DNA of 44,347 nt, filler included, from Bdellovibrionota bacterium (GTDB taxonomy: Bacteria; Bdellovibrionota; Bdellovibrionia; Bdellovibrionales; JAEYZS01): NCBI GenBank assembly GCA_963169515.1. It is 3 parts of 3 records of this genome, joined end to end, with 100 filler letters (N's around TTAATTAATTAA, not from the genome) between each part and the next. Parts side by side here need not be neighbours in the genome. Positions count along the whole stretch, not along the records: positions 20,988 to 38,257 come from CAUJEF010000170.1; positions 38,358 to 44,347 come from CAUJEF010000173.1; 1 more part is not named here. One strand, given 5' to 3'. Position numbers: made by a program. Shown piece after piece: positions 27,001 to 39,000 of the stretch. Positions within the stretch are counted from its first letter, which is position 1. Each line of letters opens with the position of its first letter.

Positions 27001-30000
27001 TGAATAAAAAATAGCATCTGGGGTAAAGCCTGCTACAAATTCATTTGTAACACGATTTGAGTTAGTAGGTTTATACCCATTTCTACATTGTTAATGGTTA
27101 TGTATTCGTCCGTCCCGTGAAGCAAAGACACTTCTTCGAGTGAAATCAGAATAGGAATAATTCCATAACATATAAAGCCTTTTTCTCTAAAAAAGCGGCT
27201 GTCAGTTGCTCCAGGGGACAAATATGGAGCCACTCGAGAATTGGGTATAGATGCATGGACCACACCTTTGATGGTTTTAAATAATGGTGTGTTCGCAGTT
27301 GTTTCTGTCGGTTCAGAGTCTGATATACGTTTTGCCTCAATATTATAATATCGACCCATTTTTCGAATATCTTCGAAGATGGCTTGTGAGTTTTCCCCCG
27401 GTAGCAACCGAATATCTAAAATGGCCGAGGCATGGTCTGGTATTACGTTCACGCCATTGGCAGGCGTGCTCAAGGCCGTAACAGCAACCGTGTTTTTTAA
27501 CATCGCATTCATCGTATTGCGCTCAGTAAGTTTATTAATAATAAATTGCTTAAAAACAGGATTGCGCAATCGGCGCAGTAAAAATGAGTTGGGGAAATTA
27601 AAAGACATCGATAATTCATTAAAAAATGGCAGAACCTGGTCAGTAACTTTTACGAAGTTATACTCGCTCATCACTTTTTGAATAAAAGCCATCAAAGAGA
27701 CTGTCGAATAGTGTTTGGGCGGCATACTCGCGTGGCCGCTACTGCCGCTGGCAGTTATTTCAAGGCCCAAAACTCCCTTTTCGGCCACCTGCACATTAAA
27801 GAAACTTTGGCCCTTTGATGGAAAGTTTTGAATCCCGAATCCACCCTCATTAATTACATATTTATAGCCGTTAAAAAGCTCTGGATATTTATCCAATAAA
27901 TATTGAACACCGTACACTCCTCCGCTTTCTTCATCGGGCGCAGCTAAAAACATGATTTTATTTTTCAGTGGAAAATTTTGTCGATTGAGCGCCACCAGTG
28001 TCATCATTTCCATGGCAAGCATACCCTTCATATCTAGCGAACCGCGACCGTAGATACGGCCGTCAACGACTTTTGGATTAAAGGGTGGGTACATCCACGA
28101 ATCAGACGCCTCGACGACGTCCGTGTGCCCCATCAGAATAATTCCCTCTTTGGAATTAACGGGCCCAATCTCAGCGATCAAAGATACTTTGTCCTTGCGC
28201 TCTGGATGAACCACTAAACGAGTTTTTATTTTTTCTTTAGTGAATACGGAATTTAAATAATCGACAACCTTGTTTTCATCTTTGCGGACGGTCGGAATTG
28301 CAAGCAATTTCAATAAATGTGCAACACCCTCTTTATAAAGCGACACAAAATCAATGGTTATGCCGGGGTCTCGAACAGGGTTTGCTTGAATTGTTTCTAC
28401 GTAGGACGGCTTTAAAATCCATCTTGCAACAATGACAAGCGCTAAAAAAAGGTAAATGTGATGTCTTTGTATCTTAGCCATTAAAATCTAACCCTGGTGG
28501 ATGGATTTTTCTGCAGCTTCTTTGATCAAATGTTCGGCTTCAGACCTACCGAGGAATTCATCAATCACATTGTGTAGGAAATAAATAACCGGGGTCATGC
28601 CGATTGCGATCAAAAGCTTATATGAATAATTCGTCGAAGACACACTGATAAATTCAGTAGTTTGAATTTTTCCAGGTAACCAAAATGCAATGCCCACGAC
28701 ACAAAACGTATCGATCAATTGCGATACAACAGTCGAACCTGTTGCGCGAAGCCACAGCATTTTTCCTTTTGTTTTGTTGCGGAAAAACCAAAATACGGCA
28801 ACGTCAATCAACTGCGACAAACCGAAAGCAACAATACTACCAATAATAATCCACATGGATTGCCCAAATACCAGATTAAAAGTCTCATCGTTTACTGGCG
28901 AAAATGGAGCCGCAGGAACTTTTAACGCCACCCCAATTAAGACGAAAGCGTAAGAAATCATCGCGATTGTGACCAGAGTTAAACGCTTTACACCGTCGCG
29001 GCCAAAGTATTCGTTAATCAAATCTGTCGCAATAAAAACGACGGGCCATGGAATCACGCCGATACTGGCGCCCGGCTGCCCAACACCGGGAAGATTAATT
29101 GGAAGCAAAATTAATTTTACTCCAATAATTTCAGCTAAAATGGCATTTGTAATAAAGAATCCTGACAAAACTAAGAACACGATATCGCGACGAGTTTGAG
29201 ATGCCATAGCGTAAGCGTATTCTGCCATTAAAGATTAGGCAACAGGCATCCCTGATGGTCACCATCTGCTTAAAAATTAGATAGAGAGAGGGTCTAAAGT
29301 GTGCTAGGATTTGCGAGCTTTAAACTTATACGAAACTGGGGGTGTTCTGGTTTCGACGTGGGTTGAGAAGCTTAAGGAGCATGCCGGGGAGTATGGCCTC
29401 GATAAAAAAATGCAAACTTGTAATTGGCAACGATTACGCACTAGCAGCTTAATTTATTAAGCAGCCGATCCTAAGTTCTGTGATGGCGGGAATTTAAAGG
29501 TCGACATTTAGTCATCTCGGTTGTGTAGGATAACTGATCCAGCAACACAGCTTAAATTTACTGGATGAGTGCTGTTAAGATAGTTTGTTTGTGGACAGTC
29601 TTAACTTCTAACAAACACAAACTAAGCGTGTAGCCCGTCTTAAGTGGACATCTTGCGGACGGGGGTTCGATTCCCCCCACCTCCACCAAATTTCTCGCAC
29701 TTATATTTGAGATGAGATGACCTCCCAAGAAATGAAGCTTGGGAGGCTATTTTATAAAAATCGAGTACTTTTAATGATTTAAACCAATATAAGACCATCC
29801 CACAGGCCTAAGTCCCCCATTACAAAAATATCTTTTAATGCCCATTTAATTCCCATTGGGCATCAGAGACTACATCCTAAGTAAGTATGTAGCGTTTTTT
29901 GTGGACAATCAGATATCTGCGCGTTAGCTCTCAACTTATGAGCAAGCGAACAGAAAAAGTCATTATCAGTCCAGAAGGAAGAATTCTAAAAAAATTGAGA

Positions 30001-36000: not shown

Positions 36001-39000
36001 AATTGGAATGTAATGGAGGTTTAGTCTACGACCATAATTTGCCCACATTTCTTTTTATGTTGGCTGATGGATGGGTTTTGCTCCCATTCCTTGTAAGCAA
36101 TGGCAAGGGTCAGCCACTCCATTGTGAAGTTTACTATGTGCGTGAAGGCAAATTATTTTGTAATGGCGTGGAAATATCCACGCAAGCATTCGCGCAAAAA
36201 CTTTTTTGTGATGAACAAAATCGCTTCATCATAGGTAAAGTAAAAAGGGGTGAGGATTACTCCTCACCCTGATTTTCAAGTACTTTTAGTAAATACTTGA
36301 TTGAGATTGAAATAGCAGAGCCTGAATTGAGATAAACCAAAATGTTTGTACCATTTTTAGTTTTTCTCACCTTGTGAAAAGGCACGAAGGCCAAACCGCG
36401 GTTCATTTTCTCGTTCTGAATTTCTTGTTTTACTTTTGCCATAAAATTTCCTTTCGTTTTATTGTTTCAACCCACTTTGGGGTTTTCACAAATTGCTGAA
36501 ACCCAAGTGGCGTTAGAAACTAGGGGCAATCAGCCGAAAAATCCTTTTAGAATTGAAAAGGGCGACTGGCATAACCGATGACAACAAGTTGGCGGTGGTT
36601 AGTGAATAAGGATGTCCCCAATCGGTCGGCTGATTGACACGGCAGAAAGGGCGCTATGGCAAATGAAACGACTTATGACTACTTACTAGATGTGGGTATG
36701 TTCTTTTTTTCAGGGCTTAGAAGTCGACTAAGCATTTTAGCTATTGGGATTAAGACCTAAGGCTTGGCGATTATAGTCTTAACTTTTGTCATTAACTTAC
36801 CGAAGAGTCGAGCATCCTAGATTGTTTCTAGTTTGGTGTGGGTATAATGGCAAAGATTGAAAAAAAAGAGTTTCGGTTTCATTCAAAGGCATCTGAAAAG
36901 TATGTTGATATTGTATTCCACTATCAAAATAGCAGAGCGTACGCCACTTCTGTGCCTATTATTTACCGTCGAACAGGCACAGAGATTGAAGACGAAGCTG
37001 TGGATGAATACTTAGATAAAGTTTGGGAGGAAGTTAACCCACAGAACTGGGACAATTGGAGAGCTGAACAAGTTTCTTTTTGGAGTGGTAAGCCCAATGC
37101 TTCAACTACCAAAGGTTTCTTTGATGCTCTAGCACAAAACTTTAATTGGTGTTGTGTTTCTTGCGACCTACCACAAAACCCCAACTGGGCAAGAAGGGTT
37201 CAGGATTTGAAGGAGTTTGGCTACACACTTGCTACAAATACGAGAAGACACTGCTCTAAGTGCGAAGGTAATTCAACGCAATTGATTTTGGTTCCTCTAA
37301 AGCGAGGAGGCATCACAGGTTATGAAACTTGGAGTCCAGAACTAAGGTCAAAGATTGTGTCCCTCCTGAACGAATTTGATGCCTACGAAGCAAAGGTTGG
37401 CAGAAAAGAAGGGTTATTGCCTGACCATAAGTTTCCAGAAATTAGATGGGATGCTGAGACTCGAAGGCATTCACTAGAACATTTATCAGATGAAGAGCTT
37501 AAAAAGGATTTTCAACTTCTTTCAAACCAACGAAACCAGCAAAAGCGAGAGGTCTGTCGTAAGTGCTTCCAGACGGGCAACAGAGGAACAGTTTATGGTA
37601 TACCGTTCTTTTATGAAGGGTCCGAAGTTTGGGACGCCAGCATTCCGAAAATCGGAAAAAAGGCCGAACAGGGATGTGTAGGTTGTGGTTGGTACGATAT
37701 AAACAAATGGCGAACCGAGTTGGCTAAAAAGTTGAAATAGCTCTCCGCATAAGTTGAAAATCTCCAGACATAATGAATTGAAACTATTGGTTTTTTTACG
37801 CTATACTTTTGTCTAGCAAAGACAAAATTTAAATGCTTAAATTTTCCGCACACGTTCTTGCCTCTGGGGATAACAATTGATGAGTAGAAAAATTCTAGTT
37901 GGAAGTATATGTTCTGGTATTGAAGCAGCGTCAGTTGCTTGGAAAAATCTTGATTTCGAGTTCTCTTGGTTTTCAGAGATTGCTGATTTTCCCTCAAGAT
38001 TTTTAGCGTTGAAATATCCTGAAGTGAAAAATCTTGGCGATATGTGTGAGATACCATCTAGACTTGAAAACAAAGAGATTGTGGCGCCTGACCTAATTTG
38101 TGGAGGCACTCCCTGCCAAGCTTTTTCACTTGCTGGTTGGAAAAAAGGTCTAGAAGACACGCGAGGTAATCTAACTCTAAAGTTTGTGGACATTATTGAA
38201 ACTAACGACATCGTTCGAAAGGCCAATAAGAAAAAGCCAACTGTAGTATTTTGGGAANNNNNNNNNNNNNNNNNNNNNNNNNNNNNNNNNNNNNNNNNNN
38301 NTTAATTAATTAANNNNNNNNNNNNNNNNNNNNNNNNNNNNNNNNNNNNNNNNNNNNTGTCAAAGCGAATAAAGTGAACACCAAGTGCCTTAGCTAATTG
38401 CTTTGAAATTTCTGTCTTACCAACTCCTGTTGGACCGGAAAAAAGAAAGTTACCGACAGGTTTGTCGTCGCGACCAAGCCCTGAGCGAGCCACTTTGATA
38501 GCCGTTGTCAGGGCATCTACCGCTTTATCCTGCCCATAAATAACCAGTTTTAAATTTTTGTCCAAGGTTTGAAGCTTTTCTTTTTCGTCGCTTCGGACGG
38601 TTTGCGGTGGCAACCCTGACAGATCCGCTACGACTTCTTCGATATCTTTGACTTGGATCGTAGAATTGTTCTTCCCTTTTAATTTCTTTTGTAGTTTTTT
38701 ACGTGAACCAGCTTCATCTATCACGTCAATGGATTTGTCTGGTTGAGCCTTTCCTGTGATATGAAGGTCAGACAATTCTGCCGCAGCCCGAATTGCGTCT
38801 TGGTGATACTGAACGGCATGAAAATCCTCATAGGTCTTTTTCAAGCCTTCGAGAATTTTAATCGTTTCATCTCGAGAGGGCTCGTTTACATCGATTTTTT
38901 GAAAGCGGCGGACCAGGGCACGATCTTTTTCAAAATGCTGGCGATAATCTTTAAAAGTTGTGGAGCCAATGAAACGAATGGTTCCTTGGGTAAGAACTGG

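Follow-up and report, generated by a model that had tools for sequence, protein, structure and literature searches.

The closest described systems are streptococcal IMEs of Class_IME_1, which the available text of PMC5357655 defines by a MobT/Rep_trans relaxase, TcpA and a tyrosine integrase, with tcpA lying upstream of the relaxase gene and TcpA found only in Firmicutes. In the accessible part of PMC5704250, such IMEs are suggested to use TcpA/FA helpers only. The nick hairpin IR1 of ICESt3 consists of a 7-bp GC-rich repeat around a 12-nt loop carrying CT'AA (excerpted text of PMC9371924), and OB-fold helpers are described in the portion of PMC12614216 at hand. PMC5714925 lists motifs N', I, III and IV of Rep_trans endonucleases.

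Here, we analyse an element in a 44,347-nt stretch of DNA (the window) from a Bdellovibrionota bacterium. Its layout is that of Firmicute TcpA/MOBT IMEs and less like that of AICEs: it has an integrase, att repeats and a relaxase-type gene, and no T4SS genes, none being found in any locus read. The survey's finding of a gene set of IME/AICE type is upheld and strengthened for its IME part by the Rep_trans fold with its catalytic motifs, a nick-site-like hairpin, an OB-fold gene and an FtsK-clade ATPase lacking a gamma domain. The AICE part is weaker: the TraB protein of pSG5 gives a lower score than either TcpA or FtsK.

Results

Boundaries and integration site. The element adjoins the tmRNA gene, as the survey had placed it; it starts at position 29689, and the contig breaks off at 38257 within the C5 methylase gene (Table 1). 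The ~8 kb given earlier is therefore too short for this copy, which spans at least 8.57 kb and, judging from sibling L028, probably ~9.7 kb. The 9-nt att core recurs at the distal end of the C129, G080, G233, L028, L030 and L033 copies, and these att repeats, together with changing flanks, demonstrate its integrative nature. Among the pieces listed for four runs (100 more were not), no attP joint of an excised circle was found; as contigs also drop rare forms, absence is not proven.

Table 1. Features of the element and its host site, in window positions
Feature	Position	Strand	Remarks
Host tmRNA gene	29338-29688	+	Final 9 nt are the att core
attL and putative left arm	29680-29900	+	Left end kept in C129 and G080
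HTH_3 (XRE-type) regulator, 116 aa	29938-30288	+	Pfam E 6e-15
Tyrosine integrase, 414 aa	30384-31628	+	PF00589 E 5e-22; exchangeable
Cargo slot 1	31630-32697	-	DUF7249 protein, 113-aa orphan, 92-aa orphan
Small GNA-loop hairpin	32841-32853	+	Directly before nick hairpin; 3-8 bp stem in 13/13 loci
Candidate dso/oriT hairpin	32854-32881	+	12-nt loop closed by an 8-bp GC-rich stem
OB-fold, SSB-like protein, 92 aa	33068-33346	+	AF2 pLDDT 90.5
Membrane-anchored FtsK/TcpA-like ATPase, 425 aa	33346-34623	+	Without gamma domain
Rep_trans-fold initiator/relaxase, 290 aa	34610-35482	+	Fold and catalytic motifs
Helical orphan, 76 aa	35512-35742	+	Translationally coupled to next gene; no family match
Candidate papain-like cysteine hydrolase, 176 aa	35742-36272	+	C32, H127, N/D141
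Conserved orphan, 61 aa	36257-36442	-	
Conserved structured non-coding stretch, ~170 nt	36465-36633	+	10 loci compared; 15 of the 48 pairs changed on both sides
Cargo slot 2	36838-38257	+	HNH-like (ICEA) nuclease and C5 methylase (truncated by contig end)

Twins and spread. That the window copy has a sibling on contig C129 is borne out by eight matching proteins at 71-95% identity (HTH 81%, integrase 83%, 92 aa 88%, ATPase 75%, initiator 76%, 76 aa 71%, 176 aa 75% and 61 aa 95%), and third codon positions hold most changes in all five genes counted. Positions 196-7961 of C129 match contig C13 of genome G080 at 99.807% over 7768 nt, with seven differences within the element and seven in the RNA-gene part. 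G080 carries family label f3 against f1, and its copy adjoins tmRNA, so that near-identical copies sit beside different host RNAs. The survey's claim of a 99.8% copy at tmRNA in another host holds, and recent spread between hosts is supported; because near-identical copies occur in distantly related hosts, the island appears to be spreading at present. The C129 element is also present in six RNA runs. Beside it lies a tRNA-Gln gene (7937-8011, minus strand); outside support for this junction, on which the survey had urged caution, was not found, and synteny with six relatives from the family failed to show whether it is C28 or the 195-nt flank of C129 that comes after tmRNA or tRNA-Gln.

The reported distribution of the ATPase gene (13 of 384 Bdellovibrionales genomes, five families) was reproduced, and the near form of the initiator occurs in eight of the 384. 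The Bdellovibrionales family comprises two clades, one member being a circular plasmid of a cultured strain; initiator relatives amount to 49 clusters at 90% identity.

Conserved core and exchangeable parts. The family core consists of a GC-rich hairpin, the 92-aa OB-fold ssDNA-binding-like protein, the membrane-anchored FtsK/TcpA-like ATPase, the Rep_trans initiator, the 76-aa orphan and a candidate Cys-His-Asp/Asn peptidase. The gene set that the survey had listed as shared is common to both twins, but the HTH regulator and tyrosine integrase fall outside this core and the cargo differs. The recombinase is an exchangeable module, since relatives carry other recombinases and use other sites. 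Cargo slots hold defence or resistance-like genes: slot 1 of C129 contains an ABC-F ATPase instead, and slot 2 of the window copy is probably a restriction-modification pair, complete in L028 and L032.

The initiator. Sequence searches of the 290-aa protein against PDB, Pfam, PHROGs and NCBIfam gave no match (the PF02486 cut-off was not reached), and PF02486 is present in 17-24% of the members of its Atlas neighbours. Its AF2 model (pLDDT 88) displays the crescent beta-sheet catalytic fold of Rep_trans endonucleases; the top six Foldseek rows against PDB are all RepSTK1/RepDE, with VIA Z values of 14.5 and 10.4 against 6.7 for the next match. Together with the catalytic motifs, these results support the fold proposed by the survey. 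By analogy with PMC4797284, we newly assign predicted catalytic residues: D11, D130 and E234 would bind metal, and Y197 (codon 35198-35200) would be the nucleophile. D130, Y197, K199, E202, R232 and E234 are kept in 49/49 sequences, and motifs N' (D), I (RxD), III (YxKxxE) and IV (RxE) in 47-49 of the 49. Motif II (T/SxY/ExG) is degenerate, and distant-clade initiators keep D, RxD, YxK and E with partial loss of flanking residues. The model begins with the catalytic strand and, unlike MOBT ICE relaxases, lacks an N-terminal HTH.

The ATPase. The 425-aa protein is an FtsK-clade ATPase with an N-terminal membrane helix, nearer to FtsK than to VirD4 (hhalign: TcpA 97.3%, FtsK 97.0%, TraB of pSG5 80.5%, VirD4 3.8%). 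Its description as a TcpA/FtsK-like translocase stands for clade and anchor; as for a true TcpA, the TcpA match spans longest, but TcpA, host FtsK and EccC are tied. The ATPase domain reaches the protein end, with neither gamma/wHTH nor a TraB-type C-terminal DNA-binding domain.

Small core proteins. The model of the 92-aa protein has a five-stranded OB barrel of SSB type (Foldseek best 2hql, E 6e-5; VIA Z 7.7), making it a putative ssDNA binder; an ESM Atlas search gave no usable match. In the 176-aa family, the Cys-His-Asp/Asn residues occur in 89-90 of 90 members and Peptidase_C12 matches are weak (8/90), consistent with a candidate papain-like cysteine peptidase.

Nick-site-like hairpin and structured stretch. 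Features newly recognized here are the SSB fold, the structured ~170-nt stretch and a nick-site-like hairpin with a co-varying stem. Each of the 20 loci examined has the hairpin ahead of the operon, and in 7/7 distant loci it lies at the same position. At least seven of eight pairs form in 12 of 13 near loci, which contain seven distinct stems; pairs were counted by script as the best of three registers, which favours pairing. RNAalifold on alignment A4 missed this hairpin because MAFFT shifted one arm. The geometry matches ICESt3 IR1, and by analogy with the available part of PMC9371924 the predicted nick lies between 32869 and 32870. The loop reads CTAT in 12 of the 20 loci, the window copy among them, CTAA in three (the canonical CT'AA of distant copies L098, L099 and L101) and other variants in five. 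The structured stretch, possibly a single-strand origin or an RNA, had no match in an Rfam scan, which returned tmRNA only.

Plasmid form and potential helpers. The whole core resides on pBdHAGR3, a circular plasmid carried by Bdellovibrio sp. HAGR004; in a Pfam scan this plasmid has a ParA-like gene and no other recognised replicase; MOB-suite typed it as non-mobilizable, the family being missed by Pfam. A sister plasmid encodes VirB4-, VirB10- and relaxase-like genes. VirB4-like genes occur in 11/14 carriers versus 157/370 other genomes, a count that ignores kinship and assembly quality; carrier G000 has no VirB4 match. A VirD4-type Pfam match on its contig C42 proved to be a HerA-like gene without T4SS neighbours. 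The helper typed in one carrier, G080, is best TraC-F-type, TcpF scoring far weaker, and plasmid pBdHAGR1 behaves likewise. The helpers seen look TraC/F-like with VirD4, not FA-type as in Firmicutes.

Discussion

We favour, with a probability of about 0.55, a rolling-circle-replicating integrative mobilizable element that excises, replicates by rolling circle and uses the ATPase that it encodes to pass its DNA on to a helper T4SS. The integrase would excise the element and insert it at the tmRNA 3' end. As fold, motifs and hairpin suggest, the Rep_trans protein would nick the hairpin loop via Y197 and displace the + strand. The OB-fold protein may bind this strand or assist the relaxase, and the structured stretch might prime the second strand, both more tentatively. 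Least certain, the membrane ATPase could act as the element's own coupling protein, passing the relaxase-DNA complex to the T4SS of another element. This model is supported by the fold and conserved residues of the initiator, by the ICESt3-like geometry, co-varying stems and, in three copies, canonical loop of the hairpin, and by the order OB-fold, ATPase, relaxase, which parallels tcpA upstream of the relaxase and the described OB-fold helpers. Also in its favour are the long span of the TcpA match, the core plasmid with its T4SS-like sister plasmid, the share of carriers with a VirB4-like gene and the near-identical copies beside different host RNAs. Counting against it are the CTAT rather than CTAA loop of the window copy, the degenerate motif II, the failure to find an attP joint in four runs, the lack of VirB4 in G000, an ATPase that resembles host FtsK and EccC just as closely as TcpA, and helpers that are not FA-type.

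An alternative is self-sufficient transfer, in which the ATPase would be a TraB/AICE-like DNA pump moving the circle without a T4SS between touching cells (for instance predators in or on one prey cell, or across division septa). In its favour are an FtsK-clade ATPase with an N-terminal membrane helix, an intact core with a T4SS gene in none of the loci read, and no VirB4 in G000. We consider this unlikely, as TraB ranks lowest of the three FtsK-clade references (80.5% versus 97%), the gamma/wHTH domain is missing, and hydrophobicity comes up to 1.8 only in the ATPase and in a central part of the 176-aa protein. Crossing of the outer membrane would still be required. A related and similarly doubtful idea is a diderm branch of FtsK-derived transfer that arose apart from Firmicute TcpA, in which the ATPase would pump the Rep_trans-nicked circle between predators with no T4SS of its own type, a dedicated cysteine peptidase being part of the core operon, as a minimal transfer system suited to the predatory life cycle.

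The module might instead only replicate and segregate the excised circle in a filamentous predator, with passive spread by vesicles, uptake or transduction. An initiator that lacks the N-terminal HTH, like plasmid RepSTK1, the FtsK homology and the absence of another recognised replicase on the core plasmid fit this explanation; the ParA-like gene on that plasmid does not, and the occurrence of 99.8% identical copies in different host families argues for efficient transfer, leaving it quite improbable. Rep, SSB and an FtsK-HerA ATPase are also the inovirus toolkit, and among viral folds the initiator matches Inoviridae Reps best, as expected of a phage satellite or filamentous-phage derivative in which Rep, SSB and a pI/Zot-like ATPase would pack ssDNA into borrowed particles. 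This origin is very unlikely: the core has no small membrane coat gene, no relatives were found in IMG/VR or phage records, and the ATPase profile retrieves FtsK/TcpA/EccC, with Zot only at E 0.19.

The cited literature confines TcpA to Firmicutes and ties RCR-type IMEs to FA-type helpers; under the favoured mobilizable-element model, a module described from Gram-positives is now seen in Gram-negative predators, crossing host families. The coupler-versus-pump question for IME-encoded TcpA-like ATPases becomes testable, since a cultured strain carries one member as a complete plasmid alongside another plasmid with T4SS-like genes. The element may also provide Bdellovibrio with a native replicon.

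Among known systems, actinomycete AICEs share an integrase, an RCR initiator, an FtsK-like membrane ATPase and the absence of a T4SS, but their TraB transfers dsDNA, whereas here the ATPase is shorter and less TraB-like, the initiator is Rep_trans and the host is a non-mycelial diderm. The pT181/pSTK1 Rep_trans plasmids provide the best structures (4cij, 4cwc/4cwe), the D-D-E plus Tyr site, a hairpin nick site and, in one family member, the plasmid form; they differ in sequence (14-18% identity), whereas the present element is integrative and carries a membrane ATPase. The mobilization module of Tn916/ICEBs1/ICESt3 agrees in gene order, nick hairpin geometry and catalytic motifs; here, however, there is no FA-type T4SS, there is a single OB-fold gene, which lies downstream of the hairpin, the relaxase lacks the N-terminal HTH, and the window clade has a CTAT loop. 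With Class_IME_1 (PMC5357655, available text), the element shares its small size and tRNA-type integration, an FtsK-like ATPase gene immediately preceding a Rep_trans gene, the swapping of integration modules and the lack of a T4SS. Unlike that class, it occupies a diderm host, its proteins fall under Pfam cut-offs, OB-fold and peptidase-like genes and serine-recombinase variants occur, and the integrase lies upstream rather than in relaxase-xis-int order.

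Core proteins and candidate origin

The Rep_trans fold that the survey had assigned to the 290-aa protein is borne out. A model built with 49 homologues (pLDDT 88) returned only RepSTK1 and RepDE in its top six Foldseek rows against the PDB (best E 4e-9), and a wide structure search matched them at Z 14.5 (rmsd 3.7, 224 aligned) and 10.4, followed by 6.7. Scored with the motif set presented in passages of PMC5714925 and PMC4797284, D11, R128-D130, Y197-K199-E202 and R232-E234 are kept in 47–49 of 49 rows; motif II is degenerate, and the protein has no N-terminal HTH. Among Atlas neighbours, a minority of members carry Rep_trans or Phage_CRI, with a low recognition value.

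The 425-aa ATPase combines a hydrophobic N-terminal helix with Walker motifs. Searches with a 37-row profile matched it to EccC, TcpA and FtsK, with E values between 2e-15 and 4e-13 and the longest span for TcpA, and hhalign gave 97.3% for TcpA, 97.0% for FtsK, 80.5% for TraB and 3.8% for VirD4. The TcpA/FtsK likeness claimed earlier stands, with EccC matched in the same range; descent from TcpA is a possibility. In the 176-aa family, C32, H127 and D/N141 are kept in 89–90 of 90 rows, a pattern that we take to be of papain-like hydrolase type; Peptidase_C12 matches are weak and occur in 8 of 90 members, and the protein is a candidate hydrolase of that type. The 92-aa protein is modelled as a five-stranded barrel (pLDDT 90.5) and predicted to be an SSB-like OB fold, its structural matches being SSBs at an only middling Z of 7.7. 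ICESt3 requires its OB-fold helpers, described as essential in part of PMC12614216.

A hairpin precedes the OB gene (see table). After the copy in genome G080 was dropped as identical to that on contig C129, 13 of 14 near-clade loci were counted; in 12 of them no more than one of the 8 stem pairs is missing, whereas such a hairpin is met at 478 of 180412 background positions. Seven distinct stems occur and pairs 2, 4, 5 and 7 vary on both sides; since the sequences are related, these changes represent fewer events than rows. Near loops are CTAT (11) or TTAT (2); in each of the seven distant loci a GC-rich hairpin occupies the matching place, looped CTAA (3), GTAA (2), CTTA (1) or CTAT (1). According to passages of PMC9371924, IR1 of ICESt3 is a 7-bp GC-rich repeat enclosing 12 nt with CT'AA, common to Rep_trans plasmids.

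In the distal non-coding stretch, 15 of 48 pairs show two-sided change across 10 loci, a level reached by none of 500 shuffles and by none of the slid controls; the opposite strand folds nearly as well. Single-strand origins are described in part of PMC5703833 as structured, of ~160 nt and flexible in position, and the stretch fits as a putative origin of this kind; alternatively it may encode an RNA or serve the 61-aa gene as its leader.

Positions of features in the window and in related loci
Feature	Sequence	Position	Remark
N spacers	window	20888-20987; 38258-38357	join contigs C168, C170, C173; ORFs spanning them are artefacts
tmRNA gene	window	29338-29688	element begins directly after
Candidate nick-site hairpin	window	32854-32881	~200 nt before OB gene
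Putative nick	window	between 32869 and 32870	predicted by analogy
Small hairpin	window	36247-36268	176-aa and 61-aa genes converge; possible terminator; plasmid also has one
Element cut off	window	38257	contig end
ABC-F ATPase cargo	L001	4290-5774 (-)	resembles ribosomal protection proteins (338 bits, cut-off 380); also in G080 and L030
Frameshift in G233 initiator gene	L018	1951-2873	
ORF with RxDxAxD motif	L028	13818-14537	next element, same site; perhaps another Rep_trans-type protein
Two att-like repeats, second integrase	L032	7944; 14719	suggests tandem elements
Dam-type methylase fused to tyrosine recombinase	L043 (pBdHAGR3)	19-1386	
Related HTH (50%) and integrase (39%)	L057	117-1252	at tmRNA of G191

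Family range, integration and spread

The ATPase profile matches 13 of 384 order genomes, spread over five families, and the near initiator form 8 of 384; ten metagenome loci and five named Bdellovibrionaceae-type genomes enlarged the set. When 1.84e9 representatives were scanned with a profile, 57 matched; of the ten looked up, a single one carries an organism name, and it belongs to the Halobacteriovoraceae. In the near clade the OB gene is followed by the ATPase, the initiator, the small gene and the 176-aa gene. Five distant loci (L097-L101) keep this order, their initiators being recognized from place and motifs (best profile E 0.02), and so does pBdHAGR3, a circular plasmid of Bdellovibrio sp. 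HAGR004. The recombinase is not part of the core and differs by integration site: elements at tmRNA or tRNA-Asn have a tyrosine integrase, those at tRNA-Leu a serine recombinase (as typed in L014, which shows a 25-nt repeat) and those at tRNA-Met a gene without family assignment. Order-wide profile searches (384 genomes) gave no ATPase or initiator match in G191.

The twin elements reported by the survey, which may or may not share one cell, are real, with eight common genes at 71–95% identity, and its near-identical copy at tmRNA in another host is upheld: C129 196-7961 matches G080:C13, from a genome of another family label, at 99.807% over 7768 nt. Recent spread across several hosts is supported. 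Cargo differs: an HNH-like nuclease, its neighbouring C5 methylase and three small genes make up that of the window element, an ABC-F ATPase that of the C129 sibling; in L032 the HNH-methylase pair occupies the other cargo slot. A close sibling of the window element (L028) spans 9.7 kb between att repeats, which places the missing attR ~1.1 kb beyond the contig end.

The last tmRNA bases recur distally in six copies (C129, G080, G233, L028, L030 and L033), identifying tmRNA as the primary target. Left-end pieces among those listed from four runs (four studies) continue into tmRNA-type sequence, a call resting on 6–7 differences and on loose ends in X12 and X13; neither a tRNA-Gln bridging piece nor a circle joint was among them. 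The claimed tRNA-Gln junction is seen in the C129 contig itself and in none of these pieces; having little beyond CCA in common with the tmRNA end, tRNA-Gln would be a secondary site. Contig C28 of the source genome (L044) repeats the C129 right end exactly over its first 114 nt and then continues into other host DNA; it could represent the end that the window copy lacks, an additional copy or a variant within the population. This overlap length is unlike the common 141, 119 and 99.

Proposed mobilization and rival explanations

We favour, at a probability of about 0.55, rolling-circle replication with single-stranded mobilization, in which the element's own ATPase would act as coupling protein and hand ssDNA to a helper T4SS. 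Of 14 carriers, 11 have a VirB4-like gene, versus 157 of 370 others (p 0.011, kin not being independent), and pBdHAGR1 is a candidate helper. Against a helper T4SS, the order-wide search of 384 genomes found no VirB4-like gene in the source genome, and both helpers typed fell outside the FA type of Firmicute TcpA/MOBT IMEs. A self-sufficient pump is unlikely, a role in maintenance only somewhat more so, and a phage satellite improbable. VirB4-like genes are present in 168 of 384 Bdellovibrionales genomes, and G080 holds a compact T4SS cluster (L074).

Comparison with known systems

Of the IME/AICE-type gene set proposed by the survey, the IME half is retained and the AICE half is not, TraB scoring below TcpA; the element is likewise not filed as a MOBT-ICE or inovirus. 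Passages of PMC3548315 describe TcpA homologues as restricted to Firmicutes, and among the titles and abstract starts listed by searches of the open literature none describes Bdellovibrionota elements of this type, although supplements of IME surveys could hold diderm cases. The element would work in the manner of streptococcal TcpA/MobT IMEs, as parts of PMC5357655 and PMC5704250 describe them, and is a real variant of that kind in Bdellovibrionales.
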